Notes under the pieces: model-generated
Seen by the model: the letters and a program-made list of their open reading frames with translations, nothing else
The model's database searches: none
Told to the model about the DNA's origin: nothing
Part shown: one piece after another, positions 1 through 5,797 of the stretch
Numbering within the stretch: position 1 is the stretch's first letter
How the letters are laid out: every line of letters begins with the position of its first letter
Virus record (IMG/VR): IMGVR_UViG_3300020182_000003
Coordinates: 1 to 5,797 of that record
Length of the DNA stretch: 5,797 nucleotides
Reading direction: 5' to 3' (one strand)
Source of the DNA: a virus
Made by a program: the position numbers and the translations under genes

Positions 1-127
1 ATCTGAATTATTAGATAAATTATTATTTAAATCAGATAAAATTGGAATTTTAGAGACTTTTATTATTTCGTTTGAATTAAATTGAACCACGTTATTTGAT
101 ACTGAGAATGGTCTTGGGTTTGGTTTA
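1..127. repeat. Left copy of an exact 127-nt terminal direct repeat (identical to 5671..5797). This is an assembly overlap showing that the replicon is a 5670-nt circle.
   Basis: Comparison block by block shows bases 1..127 and 5671..5797 are identical. An ORF reads straight through the junction. 127 nt is a typical maximum k-mer overlap for de Bruijn assemblers. Confidence 0.95.
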
Positions 128-843
128 GGACCATCTGGTGAAAGAAAATTAAATAAAGTTGGTTTATTTTCATCAGAGTTTGCCCTGCGGCCAAGTAAAT
201 CAATTCCAAATGTTCTTTGCTGACCGGCTGAAGAAAAGAAATTGCCAATTTCTGTTCCTTCACCAAGCAATTCAGTAATTTGTCCCGCGCCCAAGCTTTG
301 AAATGGCTTGATACGCATGAATTCAGCAAGCGATTTAGGAATGACTAAATCAGTTCCTAAATAATTAGCAGGGACTTTATTATTAGTATCGTTATATTTG
401 CCCCAAACATCCTCAACTACTTTTGGCATTGCATTTGATGTATTCAATGCAATTTGAGATTTAATTAAATCGGTTTCTAATCCAAATTTTTGTTTTTGCT
501 GTTCCATCCCCATATAATTTTGATATCCACTATAAGCACCTGATAGGGCTTCTTTTATTCCAAAACTACCGTGATCAATTAATGGTGATGTATATTTGGT
601 AACAATATTACCCATTCCACCAGTTGTTCGAAGTGCTGTTAATGGATTAAAACCCGCCGCTCTGGCATCATCTGCTAATTGTTGAAAATTAACTCTTGTT
701 GAATTTGTTGATATTTCACCTCCACTTGTACGTGAATGTGATACTTTTTTATCAATTAGTCCGCCAATTCCTGCTCCAACTTTTGAACCTAATGGGCCAA
801 ATTGTTTTCCGAATAATCCGCCAATTGTACTAAATATACCCAT
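1..843 (-). CDS. VP2: DNA pilot / minor capsid protein (VP2-like, functional analogue of phiX174 H). This part holds the first 281 codons. The ORF leaves the window at base 1 and continues on the circle at 5670..5614, for 299 aa in total.
   Basis: I translated the minus strand by hand from ATG 843..841 to base 1 and found no stop. The same frame is closed upstream by TAG at 870..868. The N-terminus is glycine-rich and hydrophobic (MGIFSTIGGLFGKQFGPLGSKVGAGIGGLI). The motif FQQLADDARAAGFNPLTAL resembles the AAGLNPxLA motif I recall in gokushovirus VP2 proteins. The tail is Asn/Ser-rich. The gene sits directly upstream of the capsid gene. The ORF track misses it because each copy is truncated by the linearisation point. 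Confidence 0.82.
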   Translation of the reverse strand, partial: MGIFSTIGGLFGKQFGPLGSKVGAGIGGLIDKKVSHSRTSGGEISTNSTRVNFQQLADDARAAGFNPLTALRTTGGMGNIVTKYTSPLIDHGSFGIKEALSGAYSGYQNYMGMEQQKQKFGLETDLIKSQIALNTSNAMPKVVEDVWGKYNDTNNKVPANYLGTDLVIPKSLAEFMRIKPFQSLGAGQITELLGEGTEIGNFFSSAGQQRTFGIDLLGRRANSDENKPTLFNFLSPDGPKPNPRPFSVSNNVVQFNSNEIIKVSKIPILSDLNNNLSNNSD

Positions 844-935
844 TAATTTGATCCCAATAAATATGGGCTAAATAACGCCGCGCCAATTAAAATTCCCGCG
901 AGTAGGGCATATGTATATTGTTTTAATGTTGTCAT
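843..935 (-). CDS. 30-aa single-pass membrane peptide (MTTLKQYTYALLAGILIGAALFSPYLLGSN).
   Basis: The start is ATG 935..933, preceded by GGAG about 9 nt upstream. It forms an ATGA overlap with the stop of the upstream ORF. Its TAA (845..843) overlaps the VP2 ATG as TAATG. The hydrophobic core of about 19 residues is long enough to span a membrane. It is below the ORF-track size cut-off. Confidence 0.45.
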   Translation of the reverse strand: MTTLKQYTYALLAGILIGAALFSPYLLGSN

Positions 936-1237
936 TTTATAAATCTCCGTGTAAGGAGATCAATAAGAATACCGCAACCTAAAGTTGCGCCCAATACAAT
1001 GCTATCGACAGATTGAGTTGCAACACCCATTCCAGTCAAATATGCGCCTAATAGAGTACCACATCTAGTAATCAGTGGTCGAGCTATTGCTTTTATTAAT
1101 GTAATGTTTAAAATTTTAACCTCCTTGTTTAAGAGGTCAAAGTTACGTTTGGCCGATAATATATAGTATGATAACTTCCAAACGTAGTGTCCTTGACCTA
1201 CATGTTGTATGTAATTTGATTTCTTAACAGAAGTCAA
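932..1237 (-). CDS. Small hydrophobic glycine-zipper protein. The maximal ORF is 101 aa from a TTG start. A shorter form of about 60 aa (1114..932) is more likely.
   Basis: The C-terminal half, GTLLGAYLTGMGVATQSVDSIVLGATLGCGILIDLL, has two Gly-x3-Gly-rich hydrophobic segments. The strongest Shine-Dalgarno motif in the genome (AAGGAGG, minus strand 1126..1120) lies inside the ORF, 5 nt before an in-frame ATT (1114..1112). The TTG at 1237 has no SD and lies only about 9 nt downstream of a TATAAT box. The TGA stop (934..932) overlaps the next ATG. Confidence 0.5.
   Translation of the reverse strand: MTSVKKSNYIQHVGQGHYVWKLSYYILSAKRNFDLLNKEVKILNITLIKAIARPLITRCGTLLGAYLTGMGVATQSVDSIVLGATLGCGILIDLLTRRFIK
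1120..1126 (-). promoter_or_regulatory. Consensus Shine-Dalgarno motif AAGGAGG inside the 101-aa ORF.
   Basis: The plus strand reads cctcctt at 1120..1126. No ATG, GTG or TTG follows within 5-10 nt. The only candidate at normal spacing is the in-frame ATT at 1114..1112. Confidence 0.5.
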
Positions 1238-1260
1238 GAAATAAAATTATAATCTTTTTT

Positions 1261-1296
1261 CCTTGGAGAAAATAATTAAAATTATTTGCACCAAGG
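1261..1296. repeat. AT-rich 36-nt near-perfect palindrome (CCTTGG-ag-AAATAATT-aa-AATTATTT-gca-CCAAGG) spanning the stop codon of the basic ORF.
   Basis: Pairing by hand gives 15 of 18 symmetric positions complementary. The TAA stop at 1284..1282 lies inside it. On the coding strand a TATAAT box follows at 1251..1246. Confidence 0.7.
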
Positions 1297-1770
1297 AACA
1301 AAAGATTTTGACCCCCCTTTTCCTTTTTGTGCTTTTTTTGAATCTGGCCTTTCCTTACAAACGTCGCGCCTCTTTTTGGAGGACTGATCCTCAGGCTTTG
1401 GTTTTTCATTTCGGGCAGAATTGAGAGCAACAAGTTGCTCAAGTTTTTTTGATGGGGGTCTTGAGACCCCCAAACCCCCAACAATTTTGTGTTTTTGAAA
1501 TTGTTTTTGTTTTAGACCACGATCCGTCAGTCCTATTTTGTATAGGGTCCGTTCCAAACCTAATCGTTTAAACGATTGTGTTTTACTCCGAGATGGTACT
1601 CGATCGATTGACAAGACGGGTAGGGGGGGGAGTGTTATTTTTGGTTTTCTTTGCGTTTTCCAACGAGATAACACTTTTTTCACTAAACTTCTATTAACTG
1701 CTGCACTTCGTGGAGCAGTTAATAAGTTAGCGTTTTTTCTCGATTTTCTTCTTTTTCTGGTATTAGCCAT
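1282..1770 (-). CDS. Hypothetical highly basic protein of about 162 aa. It is a candidate DNA-binding/packaging protein, analogous to J or VP8 but much larger. Its coding status is uncertain.
   Basis: The frame is open for 188 codons. The first ATGs are at 1782 and 1770, and I chose 1770 (MANTRKRRKSRKN...). By my count it has about 46 K+R against about 10 D+E. It overlaps the VP4 3' end by 52 nt. The coding strand is A-rich and T-poor here, which makes stop-free frames more likely, and a second frame is also open for 86 codons. The stretch is packed with palindromes. Confidence 0.5.
   Translation of the reverse strand: MANTRKRRKSRKNANLLTAPRSAAVNRSLVKKVLSRWKTQRKPKITLPPLPVLSIDRVPSRSKTQSFKRLGLERTLYKIGLTDRGLKQKQFQKHKIVGGLGVSRPPSKKLEQLVALNSARNEKPKPEDQSSKKRRDVCKERPDSKKAQKGKGGSKSFVPWCK
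1454..1471. repeat. GC-rich hairpin GGGGGTC-TTGA-GACCCCC, inside the basic ORF.
   Basis: Perfect 7-bp inverted repeat with a 4-nt loop, read directly. It is flanked by another C5 run at 1475..1479. Confidence 0.75.
1562..1577. repeat. Perfect 16-bp palindrome AATCGTTTAAACGATT, inside the basic ORF.
   Basis: The sequence equals its own reverse complement. A second 8-bp palindrome, TCGATCGA, lies at 1600..1607. Confidence 0.85.
1692..1724 (-). promoter_or_regulatory. Conserved stem-loop, copy C. The stem is 11 bp (TATTAACTGCT / AGCAGTTAATA) around the invariant core GCACTTCGTGG. It overlaps the VP4 stop codon.
   Basis: The core 1703..1713 is identical to the cores at 3898..3908 and 5584..5594. 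The stem position next to the core is T:A here and A:T in the other two copies, a compensatory change. The VP4 TAA (1721..1719) lies in the stem. Confidence 0.8.
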
Positions 1771-2678
1771 ATCGCATTCCATTCGTCTGCTATTGTTTTT
1801 ATTATTATTGCGTCTTCGTCGTGATTTACAATTTTGTGTGCATCCCACCTTGGGTCTTTATTTTCCAATGTGTGCAATAATTTTTGCCAAAGATTTACAG
1901 GATCGTGTTTTACTAATTCATCCTCGTAATCTTCTACTATTTGTGAATATGGCATTTTTTTATAAGAAAATGCGTGTCGGTCTAACCATTCGTGCAAATA
2001 ATATTTTATATAATTTTTTCTGGTTTTGCCCTGTATATAAAATTCACGGCGTTTGCCATGTTTGTCAAATTCATCGTTAAAAGAATATATAAAAGTTTGT
2101 GGGCTTATGCCCTGTTCAACATGTTTGATTGCTAACTTTTTGAAATATTCATCGCCTAAAGGCGGTTTTTTACTTATTGCAAAATGATTTTGCTTTATTT
2201 CTTGTGCTTTTAATTTTTTTTCATCATGTTTTTGCTGTTTAAGCATATACTTAAACATATAATTAAATCCATGATATGTTGGTTTTTCTATAAAAGAATA
2301 TCCATGCTCCCAATAGTCCCATGTATAACATTCTTTATTATATACTAAACCTTTTGGCATTTTACCGCTAAAAAAACACGCGATATGCCAGTGACAGCGA
2401 CCATAAAAACTGCCCAGTTCGCCGCTAACTGCGTATCGGACTTTATACCCCTTATTTCTAAAATTTTTAATAAAATTTTGTACGTGCTTATAATTTAATA
2501 CTGTGCTTTCTGGTGTGTCACCGCCACCATAAGTGAGTGTAACAATTAATGTTAAATCACTGTGGATGGCTTCGGCAAGTGCTCTACCCGAATAATCATG
2601 TATTCGGTTTGCAGAGCATTGCCAGCATCCGTGACATGCAACCAACTGACCGTCAATATTATTTGGTGTTACACACAT
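1719..2678 (-). CDS. VP4: Replication initiation protein: a rolling-circle HUH endonuclease of the Microviridae VP4 / phiX174 gpA type.
   Basis: Cys-rich N-terminus (CHGCWQCSANR). Motif I is IVTLTY. Motif II is the HUH motif GRCHWHIACFF (HWH at 2393..2385). Motif III is YMFKY (2261..2247), matching the two-tyrosine YxxKY active site of phiX174 gpA. The RBS GAAGG lies 8 nt upstream of ATG 2678. Confidence 0.93.
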   Translation of the reverse strand: MCVTPNNIDGQLVACHGCWQCSANRIHDYSGRALAEAIHSDLTLIVTLTYGGGDTPESTVLNYKHVQNFIKNFRNKGYKVRYAVSGELGSFYGRCHWHIACFFSGKMPKGLVYNKECYTWDYWEHGYSFIEKPTYHGFNYMFKYMLKQQKHDEKKLKAQEIKQNHFAISKKPPLGDEYFKKLAIKHVEQGISPQTFIYSFNDEFDKHGKRREFYIQGKTRKNYIKYYLHEWLDRHAFSYKKMPYSQIVEDYEDELVKHDPVNLWQKLLHTLENKDPRWDAHKIVNHDEDAIIIKTIADEWNAIWLIPEKEENREKTLTY

Positions 2679-2744
2679 TTATTTTGCCTTCAGTCGGTTT
2701 CAAGTCACTAGATGCATATATGTACGAGAGTTGTATATGCTTTC

Positions 2745-2787
2745 GCTTCTCCCCCCTCCAATACTTGGAGTTTACGGGGGGAGAAGC
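2745..2787. promoter_or_regulatory. Nested GC-rich hairpin. It has a perfect 12-bp stem (GCTTCTCCCCCC / GGGGGGAGAAGC) and a 19-nt loop that itself folds as CTCCAA-TAC-TTGGAG.
   Basis: The arms at 2745..2756 and 2776..2787 are exact reverse complements. The inner 5-6 bp hairpin is at 2756..2770. It lies in the 143-nt non-coding gap between the peptidase stop and the VP4 start. Confidence 0.85.
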
Positions 2788-2790
2788 TCT

Positions 2791-2813
2791 GTTGAGTACG
2801 GGAGCTACTCAAC
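2791..2813. promoter_or_regulatory. Hairpin GTTGAGTA-CGGGAGC-TACTCAAC, 8 nt downstream of the peptidase stop on the coding strand.
   Basis: Perfect 8-bp inverted repeat with a 7-nt loop. A T4 run follows on the plus strand only. On the coding strand the hairpin is preceded by A4 and has no following T-run. Confidence 0.8.
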
Positions 2814-2821
2814 TTTTATGG

Positions 2822-3259
2822 TCAGTCAAATACTTGACCGTCCCAATCCTTCAATTGCCAATGTGCAGGATCATAAAATTCCCAATCAAACCCATTTTCA
2901 AGTTTGATATTCATTTTACGTGCAACATCATGGCCGATTTCATATAAAATCCGCCATTCTTTTTTTGTCATACCGTCCCATAGTTTTGTACTATGAACGA
3001 TATCTACAGCCGCACCGTATTGATGATAACTTTCACCCGCTTTTGCTTGTGAAAATCCTTTTTCATACAATTCTTGCTGACGTTCTGGTGTGCGCATCAT
3101 TTCAACCGCAAAAACTGGTATTGAATAGCCTTTGCAAGCTTTTACCATATTGCGTTCCCATTTGAGAATATCGGGGTGCGCGCCAATGCGCGCAGCCCTA
3201 AGTTGTTGTTGCTTGTAATTTATTGAATTAATAAATTGTTTATTCGCCATCGCTTTCAT
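2822..3259 (-). CDS. Zinc D,D- or L,D-peptidase of the LAS / Peptidase_M15 (VanY-like, M15_4-type) family. It is a candidate peptidoglycan endolysin of about 145 aa. An alternative ATG lies at 3250, and the maximal ORF extends to 3424.
   Basis: The motif RTPERQQELY is followed by SYHQYGAAVDIVH, giving H-x6-D with H134 at 3025..3023 and D141 at 3004..3002. A C-terminal DPAHW supplies H188 at 2863..2861. This is the His/Asp/His zinc triad layout of VanY and the phage T5 endolysin. A domain-only size of about 140 aa fits the ATG at 3259 or 3250. ATG 3250 overlaps the upstream stop (ATGGCGAATAA). No signal peptide or TM segment is evident. Confidence 0.87.
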   Translation of the reverse strand: MKAMANKQFINSINYKQQQLRAARIGAHPDILKWERNMVKACKGYSIPVFAVEMMRTPERQQELYEKGFSQAKAGESYHQYGAAVDIVHSTKLWDGMTKKEWRILYEIGHDVARKMNIKLENGFDWEFYDPAHWQLKDWDGQVFD

Positions 3260-3869
3260 TGCTAGATTGTGCGTTGTCGGCTGTGGCTTTCTCTGTACCA
3301 CTTTCTCCAAGTTTTGACGTATCTGTGCTACTGTCGTCTTTCTGAAGCCCGCTTGGCGGTAAAGTGGGTTTATTACCTCCCTTAAGTGGCGGGAAAGATC
3401 CTGTATCATTTTCAATAACCTCATCTTGTTTTGTTAATCTTTCCACTTGATCAATTAAAATTTGCTCGCGTTTTGATGTTTCTGTTTTTATCATATGCAT
3501 TAATCGTTCCATTTCTGGATTGCGTGTTCGACGCATTTCCAAACCAGTAAACTTAACATCCGAAAGTTTTTGTATTGTGTGATCTTGGGCGCGGTTTTTA
3601 TACGTAATAGATACGTTTTTGTCCTTACTTACTGCCCTAATATATGTTGTTGAACTAACGGTAGTGATTAATGTGAATAATCCCTCATCACTTACTAATA
3701 ATTTTTCATCATCAAAAGATTTTGTATTACTTGCATATATTGCAACTTTTTCTGAAGTGTTAAATTCAACACGAATGGTACGGTGGTTACCAATTACTTT
3801 AAATTCTAAATTTTCATTTAGTTTTAATTTGTTCCACCCGTCGAGAGCTTGAATTTGATATCGTTTCAT
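3240..3869 (-). CDS. Hypothetical 209-aa protein with no recognisable motif. It is a candidate scaffolding or decoration protein.
   Basis: ATG 3869 is preceded by AGGAAG at about 6 nt. It lies immediately downstream of the capsid gene and hairpin A. The N-terminal 100 aa or so show alternating beta-like segments (LEFKVIG, TIRVEFN, KVAIYAS, LFTLITTV, TYIRAVS, VSITYKN). A charged helical segment follows, then an acidic, Ser/Thr/Gly-rich and probably disordered tail ending NESDGE. Confidence 0.7.
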   Translation of the reverse strand: MKRYQIQALDGWNKLKLNENLEFKVIGNHRTIRVEFNTSEKVAIYASNTKSFDDEKLLVSDEGLFTLITTVSSTTYIRAVSKDKNVSITYKNRAQDHTIQKLSDVKFTGLEMRRTRNPEMERLMHMIKTETSKREQILIDQVERLTKQDEVIENDTGSFPPLKGGNKPTLPPSGLQKDDSSTDTSKLGESGTEKATADNAQSSNESDGE

Positions 3870-3889
3870 TGTTTCTTCCTATGTTGTTT

Positions 3890-3916
3890 GCCCTGCAGCA
3901 CTTCGTGGTGCAGGGC
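3890..3916 (-). promoter_or_regulatory. Conserved stem-loop, copy A. The 8-bp stem is GCCCTGCA / TGCAGGGC around the core GCACTTCGTGG. It lies 6 nt after the VP1 stop and 20 nt before the ORF209 ATG.
   Basis: The 23-nt block CCTGCAGCACTTCGTGGTGCAGG is identical to 5578..5600. The outer pairs differ from copy B in a compensatory way. On the coding strand it reads CCTGCA-C-CAC-GAA-GTG-C-TGCAGG. No T-run follows it. Confidence 0.85.
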
Positions 3917-3922
3917 GGTTGC

Positions 3923-5527
3923 TTATTTTGATAATCTTGTTTGATCTACATCCTCGATTACTTTGTCGTAATCATCAGTGCTTTCTCTAATTGCAGGTCC
4001 GAATACGGTGTTACCCTCAATTTGAAATTCGCCTTTTGCCGTGATTTCAAAATTATCTACCGTACTATCTGCAAATATTTTGTGGTGAATATCCGTACAC
4101 ATGTACCAATCACTTGAAAGCTCAACATCGATTTTTTCATTGGCCCAAAATTTTTGGCGTTCCTCGTCAAATGAAGCATCGACAGTTGGCCTATAATATT
4201 TGCCTCCGATATTTGGTGTTGAACGCATGTAACCATGGTTCAATGGTGCATAACCAAACACACTGTCAGGGTCAGAATGGTTTTGGTCTATATAGCCGTT
4301 TCGGACAGGTTCGACTGGCTCGGGATCGAGGTAATTTTTTACAAATTCTGGATAATCGGTTGTATCTGTTGTTGTAAGAAACAAGTCTTGTGTTCTTTCA
4401 AATAAATTGTCAGGTACAATTTGACATACAACTATTATTGTTCCACCACATGTAATAGCCGGTACTGTCATAGATAAATCTATTGAAGCACCACCAACTG
4501 TAACATGTTCGTCTAAATTTGCGGCATCTGTTGCAAATCTTTGTTGCATACCCATTTGTTGCGTTTTTTCAGCTAACAAAATTGGGTGTCGCAATTGCTC
4601 TGTGGGCACATTGATACCAGCCATCATGAGGTCTATAATATACTCATCCGAGTGGCCTTGAAAATCTTGACGCATTTTTGCAAATGCTTGTGTTTTTCTC
4701 GCTAGTTCAATATTTGCTAATGATACTGTAATGCCATTATTTTCTAATTCGGCAAATACTTCTATAGCACCTGTTGTGGCACTTTGTTTTACATAAGGAC
4801 TATCGTTTGCATGAGTAGAAAAACCACTTTCATTTCCTTCATTTGTATGTAAATTATGAAATTGGTTAGACTTTGTTGCGCCTGAACCGGCACCATAAAT
4901 ACCAGTAACTCTTAATCCGTTACCAGTGCTATTTAATGATACTTCACCATCAATAATAGCCTGGTCGAAATCAGGCTTAATGTGGTTCATATGTGGGTTG
5001 TTCCAAAAGGCAGGTGCTAATGTTGCATCGGTCATAGTTCTATGATCAATAGATTTAGAAACTTCTGTTCGCATATGATTAATTAATAAATTATATGCTT
5101 CTAAATACTGTCTGTTTACAGTTGCACCTTGTGTTGCATGTATACCTAATGTTTTATAAAATTCATCATTTCTATTAAATGTATGTGTTTTAATAAAATC
5201 AATTGGTGTTTCACCATCTTCGCGTGGTACACCCATGTATGACCTATTTAAATCATCCATTCCATTGAAATTGTCTTCAGCTAATTTAGGTACCAAATAT
5301 GCTGATGCTCTAACGTTAATTCCATTAAAAATAGGTTCTGCCATTTCCATGGCTTCAACATTAACTATCATTCGACCGCGTCGTACACGATCTTCTCTTA
5401 ATAAAGGTATTACACCTACTGGAATAATTTTACCTGCATTTGCAGATGTAATAACTGTCTTTCGATCAGTTCTAGTTGATTTAACAACTGGTATTGGAGT
5501 TGTTTTTAAATTATTATTTCTTTCCAT
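3923..5527 (-). CDS. VP1: Major capsid protein (Microviridae VP1 / phiX174 F-like), 534 aa.
   Basis: It is the largest ORF in a 5.67-kb circular genome that encodes a microvirus-type Rep. The basic N-terminus is followed by AGKIIPVGVIPLLREDRV ... INVRASAYLVPKLA, which parallels the aGxLiPi...evlPGD ... FFVPxR pattern I recall for F/VP1 proteins. The RBS AAGGA lies 7 nt upstream of ATG 5527. This is a divergent member of the family. Confidence 0.88.
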   Translation of the reverse strand: MERNNNLKTTPIPVVKSTRTDRKTVITSANAGKIIPVGVIPLLREDRVRRGRMIVNVEAMEMAEPIFNGINVRASAYLVPKLAEDNFNGMDDLNRSYMGVPREDGETPIDFIKTHTFNRNDEFYKTLGIHATQGATVNRQYLEAYNLLINHMRTEVSKSIDHRTMTDATLAPAFWNNPHMNHIKPDFDQAIIDGEVSLNSTGNGLRVTGIYGAGSGATKSNQFHNLHTNEGNESGFSTHANDSPYVKQSATTGAIEVFAELENNGITVSLANIELARKTQAFAKMRQDFQGHSDEYIIDLMMAGINVPTEQLRHPILLAEKTQQMGMQQRFATDAANLDEHVTVGGASIDLSMTVPAITCGGTIIVVCQIVPDNLFERTQDLFLTTTDTTDYPEFVKNYLDPEPVEPVRNGYIDQNHSDPDSVFGYAPLNHGYMRSTPNIGGKYYRPTVDASFDEERQKFWANEKIDVELSSDWYMCTDIHHKIFADSTVDNFEITAKGEFQIEGNTVFGPAIRESTDDYDKVIEDVDQTRLSK

Positions 5528-5548
5528 TTACTTTTCCTTTTGGTTTAT

Positions 5549-5563
5549 ATTGCTTTCGGCAAT
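5549..5563 (-). promoter_or_regulatory. Small hairpin ATTGC-CGAAA-GCAAT (coding strand) just upstream of the VP1 RBS.
   Basis: 5-bp inverted repeat with a GAAA-containing loop, read directly. Confidence 0.5.
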
Positions 5564-5575
5564 TCTTACATTTAC

Positions 5576-5602
5576 AGCCTGCAGCACTTCGTGGTGCAGG
5601 CT
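5576..5602 (-). promoter_or_regulatory. Conserved stem-loop, copy B. The 8-bp stem is AGCCTGCA / TGCAGGCT around the core GCACTTCGTGG. It lies 11 nt after the VP2 stop and 48 nt before the VP1 ATG.
   Basis: It shares the same 23-nt block as copy A. The outer stem pairs are A:T and G:C here, against G:C and C:G in copy A. Confidence 0.85.
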
Positions 5603-5613
5603 TGCGTTTTCGT

Positions 5614-5797
5614 TTAGCGCCCAATTAAAAGATTTTGATTTGTTATTGAGTTAAAAAAATCAGTAACTTTATCTGAATTATTAGATAAATTATTATTTAA
5701 ATCAGATAAAATTGGAATTTTAGAGACTTTTATTATTTCGTTTGAATTAAATTGAACCACGTTATTTGATACTGAGAATGGTCTTGGGTTTGGTTTA
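5614..5797 (-). CDS. VP2: 3' end of the same VP2-like ORF. The unique part is 5670..5614 (18 codons KVTDFFNSITNQNLLIGR plus TAA at 5616..5614). The segment 5671..5797 repeats codons already counted in 1..127.
   Basis: The frame continues across 1/5670 (843 nt = 281 codons exactly). The stop codon TAA is the reverse complement of tta at 5614..5616. Confidence 0.82.
   Translation of the reverse strand, partial: KPNPRPFSVSNNVVQFNSNEIIKVSKIPILSDLNNNLSNNSDKVTDFFNSITNQNLLIGR
5671..5797. repeat. Right copy of the 127-nt terminal overlap. This is redundant sequence, not extra genome.
   Basis: Identical to 1..127. Confidence 0.95.

Follow-up and report, generated by a model that had tools for sequence, protein, structure and literature searches.

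In 2012, Roux et al. described M15_3 peptidases in 11 gut microviruses and proposed that they act as endolysins (PMC3394797). The 2022 paper on Rhizobium microviruses gave their basic gene set as mcp, rep, and lys (PMC9512667), and Zucker et al. in 2022 counted a "lysis protein" among the usual proteins of the Tainavirinae and Occultatumvirinae (PMC9753089). A Roseobacter study of 2024 found a peptidase or endolysin-like gene in most Occultatumvirinae, with subgroups 6 and 7 lacking it (PMC11499846). The first biochemically verified peptidoglycan hydrolase of a single-stranded DNA (ssDNA) phage, Gp7 of Ebor, was reported in 2025 and is active in zymograms (PMC11980548). Here we analyze a 5,797-nt stretch of viral DNA (IMG/VR record IMGVR_UViG_3300020182_000003, positions 1 to 5,797; hereafter the window), in which an open reading frame (ORF) on the minus strand encodes a predicted zinc peptidase of the M15/LAS type, together with two small membrane proteins that are candidates for helping it reach the cell wall. 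The peptidase ORF, its conserved part, and the codons of its predicted active centre are as follows.

2822..3424, minus strand: M15/LAS peptidase ORF, 200 aa plus stop, ATG-initiated
2825..3274, minus strand: conserved catalytic region, residues 51-200, from AF2 confidence (pLDDT) and an alignment of 32 homologues
3092-3094, minus strand: R111
3023-3025, minus strand: H134
3002-3004, minus strand: D141
2870-2872, minus strand: D185
2861-2863, minus strand: H188

An earlier note, made from the letters of the window, had read this ORF as an M15/LAS peptidase and had given the positions of its motifs. Both points were borne out. RTPERQQELY occupies residues 111-120, and H134-x6-D141 and D185-P-A-H188 are where they were placed; the first His and Asp fall within the LAS motif SxHxxGxAxD, here S132-x-H134-x-x-G137-x-A139-x-D141 (S132-Y-H134-Q-Y-G-A-A-V-D141). 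PHROG 465, annotated "endolysin", matches the protein with E = 2.6e-16, and phmmer against the PDB finds LysECD7 (8q2g) with E = 1e-7. Searching the PDB with a profile of 32 family sequences returned LysECD7, the RB49 endolysin, Ply500, LysB4, and ChiX at E = 2e-14 to 2e-12, while carboxypeptidases reached only E = 0.07-0.4. In LysECD7 the zinc ligands are H62, D69, and H117, with R41 and D114 as auxiliary residues (PMC11267749). Pairwise alignment equates R41/H62/D69/D114/H117 of LysECD7 with R111/H134/D141/D185/H188 of the window peptidase, and all five residues are invariant or nearly so across the 32 homologues.

The AF2 model of the peptidase, built on the family alignment, has a mean pLDDT of 88.9, with 92-98 over residues 51-190. 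By its structural matches the model has the LAS fold, which is defined by a central antiparallel sheet between helices. Foldseek against the PDB gave a probability of 1.00 to 8q2g, 2vo9, 5opz, 23ri, and 6akv, followed by VanY, VanXY, and LdcB. The five best matches are LysECD7, Ply500, ChiX, the RB49 endolysin, and LysB4, with TMt (the score normalised to the target) up to 0.73; by their PDB names the first four are L-Ala-D-Glu endopeptidases and LysB4 an endolysin only. In BFVD the best fold matches are unnamed viral proteins 24-42% identical to the query, probably microviral as judged from their accession ranges, and tailed-phage endolysins come next. The catalytic domain alone matches tailed-phage endolysins annotated as L-alanyl-D-glutamate peptidase. 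Sequence comparison and the model together confirm the assignment of the ORF to the M15/LAS zinc peptidases, with a predicted active centre that is intact, and the sequence and fold matches predict a phage-encoded muralytic domain. The bond cleaved would most probably be L-Ala-D-iGlu of the stem peptide, going by similarity at about 25% identity.

Like the window peptidase, LysECD7 and the RB49/T5-type endolysins of tailed phages with Gram-negative hosts (MEROPS M15C) have a single-domain LAS fold, the SxHxxGxAxD motif, the H/D/H zinc triad with its Arg and Asp, a similar size, and no signal sequence. The window peptidase differs from the LysECD7 type in sequence (about 25% identity) and in an extra helical region of about 80 residues before the core, which includes an amphipathic N-terminus. 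As the earlier note had said, the protein has no signal peptide or transmembrane (TM) segment, nor does it have a SAR segment; its highest Kyte-Doolittle mean over 19 residues is 0.67.

The window ends in an exact 127-nt direct repeat (1-127 = 5671-5797), and so represents a circularly closed genome of 5,670 nt. Over at least 95% of its length, the capsid protein shares 33-45% identity with its counterparts in the CRPss, RHph, tortoise, and bat microviruses; with those of other microviruses the identity is only about 21%. It has no Pfam match, a weak PHROG 514 match (E = 1e-10), and no NCBIfam match. Phage_F, which we take to be the Pfam capsid family expected here, misses it. Zucker et al. 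made the same remark on the capsid in this microvirus group (PMC9753089). Judged from its related capsid and Rep, a circle of about 5-6 kb, and the common gene order, the genome belongs to the Occultatumvirinae, a proposed subfamily of the Microviridae, and its synteny is identical to that of CRPss-152, RHph_N25, Tortoise 78, and Flyfo Tbat2_98. The comparison with gokushoviruses drawn in the earlier note is therefore beside the point, as this genome belongs to another subfamily. Across 500-nt windows the G+C content is 30-42%, far below the 59-60% of the Rhizobium microviruses (PMC9512667), and the host of this sub-lineage is, on that ground, probably a low-G+C bacterium.

The earlier note had described M15 peptidases as only sporadically noted in microviruses; in this lineage they are not sporadic. 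By tblastn, the peptidase and the capsid protein each match 73 GenBank phage records, nearly all of them belonging to one set of microvirus groups (Rhizobium 27, tortoise 18, bat 11-12, Roseobacter 5-6, rat 2). A pattern scan of IMG/VR found at least 199 contigs encoding a relative, including four with 92-94% identity and 18 with 54-60% identity over residues 2-199. Contigs from ENA and JGI carry a peptidase 96% identical to that of the window, and the nearest sequences overall are unannotated metagenome contigs (92-96% identical). The homologue is annotated "M15 family metallopeptidase" in CRPss-152 and "endolysin protein" in RHph_N25; in both it lies between an ORF of about 180 aa after the capsid gene and Rep, as in the window. 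The M15 gene is a recognised, near-core gene of the subfamily at a fixed place, and finding it here is real but already known.

The closest described enzymes are the homologous M15 proteins of other Occultatumvirinae (CRPss-151, -152, -153, -155, and -251; RHph_N25, RHph_TM24, and others), encoded at the same position before Rep. The catalytic domain of the window peptidase is 57-58% identical to that of CRPss-152 and 37-41% identical to those of the Rhizobium phages. These relatives also have the same hairpin membrane gene upstream of VP2. The window differs from them in its low G+C, its capsid protein (33-45% identical), a longer N-terminal extension of the peptidase (about 55 aa), and a 185-nt gene overlap. 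The M15_3 peptidases of human-gut Alpavirinae and Gokushovirinae follow the same idea, a horizontally acquired LAS-clan peptidase proposed as an endolysin (PMC3394797). They belong to another Pfam family (PF08291) and occur in 11 of 81 genomes at variable positions (PMC3394797), whereas the gene of the window is near-core and fixed.

Ebor, a member of the Tainavirinae infecting Rhodobacter capsulatus, offers a parallel in gene layout. In this alphaproteobacterial microvirus, Gp7 is a free-standing hydrolase of about 146 aa encoded after the capsid gene and before Rep, the gene of a 45-aa membrane protein precedes VP2, and Rep is followed by a gene for a basic protein (PMC11980548). The best HHpred match of Gp7 is PDB 6SSC (PMC11980548). 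Searched against PDB sequences at E up to 1, the M15 profile does not return this entry, so Gp7, set apart by its reported HHpred match, is probably of an enzyme family other than M15. Gp7 has zymogram evidence and the M15 type is predicted; by analogy, Gp7 shows in principle that a microvirus can have an active peptidoglycan hydrolase.

All long ORFs of the window are on the minus strand. The genes around the peptidase are the following.

932..1114, minus strand: hairpin membrane protein, 60 aa (family HMM, AF2)
843..935, minus strand: single-pass membrane mini-ORF, 30 aa, coupled to the hairpin gene and the VP2-like gene
from 843 across the junction of the circle, minus strand: VP2-like pilot ORF, about 299 aa
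3923..5527, minus strand: capsid protein (PHROG 514)
3240..3869, minus strand: 209-aa ORF between the capsid gene and M15
1719..2678, minus strand: Rep (PF23343 and PHROG 942)
1282..1848, minus strand: highly basic ORF overlapping the 3' end of Rep, 188 aa if started at GTG, 162 aa in the gene calls of relatives

On the coding strand the order is hairpin membrane protein, 30-aa membrane peptide, VP2-like pilot protein, capsid protein, 209-aa ORF, and M15, followed by Rep, the basic ORF overlapping its end, and then the two small membrane ORFs. The VP2-like ORF was missed by the ORF listing because it crosses the circle junction. A scan of the window for promoters and terminators gave results at or below shuffle expectation and delimited no transcription units.

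We think it likely that the ORF encodes a cytoplasmic, zinc-dependent peptidoglycan peptidase of the M15C type serving as the endolysin of this phage. The enzyme would be made in the cytoplasm, probably late, since its gene closes the structural block that the two membrane ORFs open. With neither a signal peptide nor a TM segment, it would have to cross the inner membrane through a lesion, and the two small membrane proteins whose genes open this block, mentioned only in general terms in the earlier note, are the best candidates for making one. The enzyme would then cut the stem peptides of the murein, most likely at L-Ala-D-iGlu, upon which the sacculus would fail and the cell lyse. A cationic amphipathic helix at its N-terminus may anchor it at the membrane or help it breach the outer membrane. 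The family and structure searches support the proposal of the earlier note that lysis here is of the endolysin type and needs a membrane partner. The lytic role draws on homology and the literature, and the timing, bond specificity, and partner role are inferred from sequence.

The hairpin membrane gene starts with ATT (1112-1114), 4 nt past AAGGAGGT (1119-1126), and its TGA stop overlaps the ATG of the next gene. A longer ORF of 101 aa from a TTG (932..1237) was rejected as the gene: in L004, a relative with 96% identity, its frame is interrupted by a TAG just before the conserved part. The ATT is conserved together with the sequence 4 nt before it, which reads AAGGAGGT in the window and TAGGAGGT in L004, where its TAG is that stop. 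Only the last 60 codons of the ORF 932..1237 are conserved, and gene callers skip the hairpin gene in close relatives. Used as a query against a set of 5.8 billion proteins, the window hairpin protein found a single protein. As the ORF is rarely called, the search was redone with the family alignment, and the matches were only on microvirus-sized contigs, genome concatemers, and prophages, all annotated "hypothetical", and so gave no separate clue to function. The family HMM matches 72 of 92 M15-bearing loci, and of the remainder most are truncated contigs.

Invariant in this family are P13, R17, G19, L26, G30, and D52. AF2 models the protein as two helices, 2-28 and 33-59 (pLDDT 84), with hydrophobic stretches reaching a Kyte-Doolittle value of 1.87 and a C-terminus ending in TRRFIK. 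In size, TM segments, and charged C-terminus it is like a holin. Class II holins and pinholins (two TM segments, about 60-75 aa, charged C-terminus) resemble it in size and in the helical hairpin; its basic N- and C-terminal flanks, a first segment rich in Gly, Ala, and Thr, and co-occurrence with an endolysin are also holin-like. Unlike class II holins, it has no significant holin similarity and its gene is not adjacent to the endolysin gene. Its hydrophobic stretches are short (about 15-16 residues), and one holds an invariant Asp. Pinholins normally accompany SAR-domain endolysins, and the M15 enzyme of the window differs from pinholin systems in having no SAR domain. The best holin matches, phrog_6116 (E = 0.0039) and PF23987 (E = 0.0052; 17 bits, where the cut-off is 27), came from one family member apiece. 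As sub-threshold and mutually inconsistent matches, they were not taken as membership. We regard the hairpin protein as a candidate holin-like partner of the peptidase.

The mini-ORF at 843-935 encodes the single-pass membrane peptide MTTLKQYTYALLAGILIGAALFSPYLLGSN. Its start overlaps the stop of the hairpin gene and its stop overlaps the start of the VP2-like gene. Related ORFs of 27-33 aa are found in 61 of the 64 loci that have a gap of at least 60 nt at this position. It is annotated in CRPss-251 only (CRPss251_03, hypothetical) and is unannotated in CRPss-152 (L001, about 1620-1710). This peptide is a second candidate for a membrane-permeabilising partner. Where M15-bearing genomes lack the hairpin family, including the rat microvirus, L036, Tortoise 38, and Flyfo Tbat2_93, another small single-pass membrane ORF occupies the slot upstream of VP2. 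Its C-terminal motif is aromatic-x-x-x-(F/L)-C, the aromatic residue being Y or F, with PETFVAFC, PETYASFC, PIYHNAFC, and PAYHKALC as examples. This alternative ORF lies at these positions.

L010: 4616-4831
L036: 2218-2373
L127: 5030-5245
L129: 5113-5247

The joint presence of the three genes was counted on contigs of at least 5,300 nt.

M15, hairpin gene, and mini-ORF: 49 contigs
M15 and hairpin gene: 7 contigs
M15 only: 2 contigs (the rat microvirus and L036)
none of the three: 27 contigs
hairpin gene or mini-ORF without M15: 0 contigs

This is the pattern that a holin-endolysin pairing would give, and it makes the two membrane proteins candidate partners. Fisher's test gives p = 4e-19, which we rejected as a probability, the genomes not being phylogenetically independent. 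The 27 genomes without any of the three form about two clades, and so stand for only about two independent events. None of the three genes occurs in two clades with related capsids (CRPss-154, or L092, and L093-L119). When relatives without M15 (CRPss-154 and the Ciona microviruses) were checked for a replacement lysin in the corresponding slot, neither Pfam nor PHROGs identified one, and a search for related loci with the CRPss-154 capsid protein found nothing.

Several observations weigh against an endolysin with these partners. The Pfam scores of the peptidase (clan Peptidase_MD) lie at or slightly below the curated cut-offs, VanY (PF02557) scoring 25.0 bits, exactly its 25-bit cut-off, and Peptidase_M15_4 (PF13539) 23.2 bits, just under its cut-off of 25; an NCBIfam search of the peptidase gave nothing. 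The literature searched holds no experiment on any M15-type microviral enzyme, and the remark in the earlier note that this type is mechanistically uncharacterised in microviruses still appears true of it. For the small membrane proteins, PHROG and Pfam scans gave only sub-threshold, scattered matches to holin families (best E = 0.004-0.005). The co-occurrence rests on the roughly two independent events mentioned above. The candidate partners are encoded about 2.4 kb from M15 and not beside it, with the mini-ORF, VP2, the capsid gene, and the 209-aa ORF separating the hairpin gene from M15. The invariable coupling of the hairpin gene to VP2 could point instead to DNA delivery as its role. No lipoprotein resembling a spanin is present, and the clade literature searched (PMC9512667, PMC9753089, PMC11499846) does not mention transmembrane proteins or holins. 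The N-terminal helix is absent from the annotated peptidases of the Rhizobium, bat, and rat phages.

That helix lies in a part of the peptidase that is overprinted on the gene upstream.

3240..3424, minus strand: N-terminal extension of the peptidase, residues 1-61, a second frame within the 3' end of the 209-aa ORF

The first 61 codons of the peptidase overlap the ORF 3240..3869 by 185 nt in another frame. Candidate starts are M1 (3424) and M6 (3409). Residues 6-23 would form a cationic amphipathic helix with a hydrophobic moment of 0.80, a value reached by 0.2% of shuffles, and the net charge across the first 30 residues is +5. AF2 places a helix at residues 2-25 (pLDDT 74-77). The position of the 209-aa ORF is conserved across the subfamily, and it has no match in Pfam or NCBIfam. 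Its tail, the part overprinted by the M15 N-terminus, holds a conserved FPxLKxGNKPxLPPSG motif and then an acidic low-complexity end.

We consider it probable that the long form, with this extension, is translated, and the extension may hold the enzyme at the membrane or help it breach the outer membrane. If instead only a short product of about 142-145 aa were made, from M56 or M59, the first 55 codons would be open by accident and the extension functionless. Gene callers do start the closest relatives at the equivalent of M56 (P0001, 147 aa), family-wide conservation begins near residue 50, the AF2 confidence over residues 1-50 is just 63-77, and the annotation of several terrestrial and gut relatives includes no such helix. 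Open runs of this length also arise by chance, as 2 of 97 in the same relative frame reach at least 60 codons. Against this, stops make up 7.2% of codons in that relative frame elsewhere in the genome, giving a probability of only about 0.012 for 60 open codons. Relatives with 96% identity keep the frame open from the same ATG, and the ATG with an overlap of 59-61 open codons is kept in all 18 genomes examined. These fall into two groups, of which the second is 54-60% identical overall, with tblastn matches spanning residues 2-199. Between the groups the extension is 45% identical, slightly more than the tail of the upstream protein encoded in the same DNA (38%). Comparison of the window with a 96%-identical relative shows 22 substitutions in the overlap, mainly at third positions of the peptidase frame (3, 7, and 12 at positions 1, 2, and 3). 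GAGGT lies 8 nt before M6, within codons 2-3, whereas M56 has no Shine-Dalgarno sequence. A cationic N-terminus, usually amphipathic, is found again in most marine subclades, and the gene annotated in CRPss-152 includes the helix. Given this, production of the short form alone seems rather unlikely to us.

The role of the enzyme also has to be weighed. A virion-associated peptidase could open the wall for genome delivery, instead of or besides lysis: purified Ebor virions contained traces of Gp7 (PMC11980548), the window peptidase has no export signal, and its basic N-terminal extension could bind packaged ssDNA or the interior of the capsid. Its closest relatives outside the microviruses, on the other hand, are tailed-phage endolysins and not virion lysins, and it stands on its own and forms no part of the pilot protein. 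The peptidase is missing altogether from sister clades that share the capsid and pilot genes and have the same wall to cross, and where the peptidase is present it co-occurs with small membrane proteins, as in lysis cassettes. An entry enzyme is on balance improbable. We give still less credence to a non-lytic, wall-remodelling carboxypeptidase of the VanY/LdcB type, serving for example in superinfection exclusion or in host fitness during a carrier state or lysogeny, which we judge very improbable. The best Pfam name is indeed VanY, "D-alanyl-D-alanine carboxypeptidase", the VanY, VanXY, and LdcB structures are significant fold matches, and relatives occur as prophages (also PMC11499846). The matches to endopeptidase endolysins are clearly stronger, both in the profile search (E = 2e-14 versus 0.07-0.4) and in fold (TMt 0.6-0.73 versus 0.42-0.48), and the gene sits in the structural or late block. 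Relatives in culture are lytic, and the papers that describe them give the gene a role in lysis (PMC11499846, PMC9512667).

Beyond the role of the peptidase as an endolysin, a broader reading can be put forward only tentatively, and we regard it as doubtful: that the marine Occultatumvirinae, with genomes of about 5.6 kb, run a three-part lysis system in the style of tailed phages, gained and lost together and largely unannotated. Its parts might be the 60-aa hairpin holin-like family, the single-pass peptide of 27-33 aa, and the M15 peptidase with its overprinted, membrane-active N-terminus. The hairpin holin-like genes may often start at codons other than ATG and be missed by gene callers for that reason.

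Other features of the genome and its relatives were also noted. The basic ORF (1282-1848) ends in a conserved ...KGxGGxKxFxPWC, shared with Tortoise 78 and CRPss152_02, and its location and charge are like those of Ebor Gp10, described as a "putative charge-mitigating virion protein". An NCBIfam search gave nothing for it or for the 209-aa ORF. Directly after the M15 stop, in the 143-nt gap before Rep, a DNA hairpin with an 8-bp stem (GTTGAGTA...TACTCAAC) lies at 2791-2813. Its T-run is on the non-coding strand, so it is not a typical coding-strand terminator; it could be a structure of the ssDNA. Among L120-L123 and the L125 entry, several metagenome contigs of 14-19 kb are head-to-tail concatemers with two to three copies of a related microvirus, and a bacterial contig of 54 kb carries an integrated relative beside a MAPEG-family gene. 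In this integrated relative the hairpin gene comes first and the element ends shortly after Rep, which is followed by a 126-aa ORF.

The M15 gene as such adds nothing new. The residual interest is in the unannotated small membrane genes and the overprinted N-terminus; neither the N-terminal extension nor the hairpin protein (932-1114) nor the 30-aa peptide (843-935) was found described in the clade literature searched. For a lineage of abundant environmental microviruses, the enzyme points to lysis by wall degradation and not by inhibition of wall synthesis of the phiX174 E type, its lytic role being an assignment from homology. The mechanistic question is how an endolysin with no signal reaches the wall in a phage whose genes number six to nine. 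Concrete candidates for an answer are the hairpin protein, the mini-ORF, and the overprinted N-terminus, and relatives are in culture (Roseobacter CRPss and Rhizobium RHph phages). If these candidates are borne out, these phages would have a minimal holin-endolysin system with a new holin family, encoded by genes that current microvirus annotation systematically misses.

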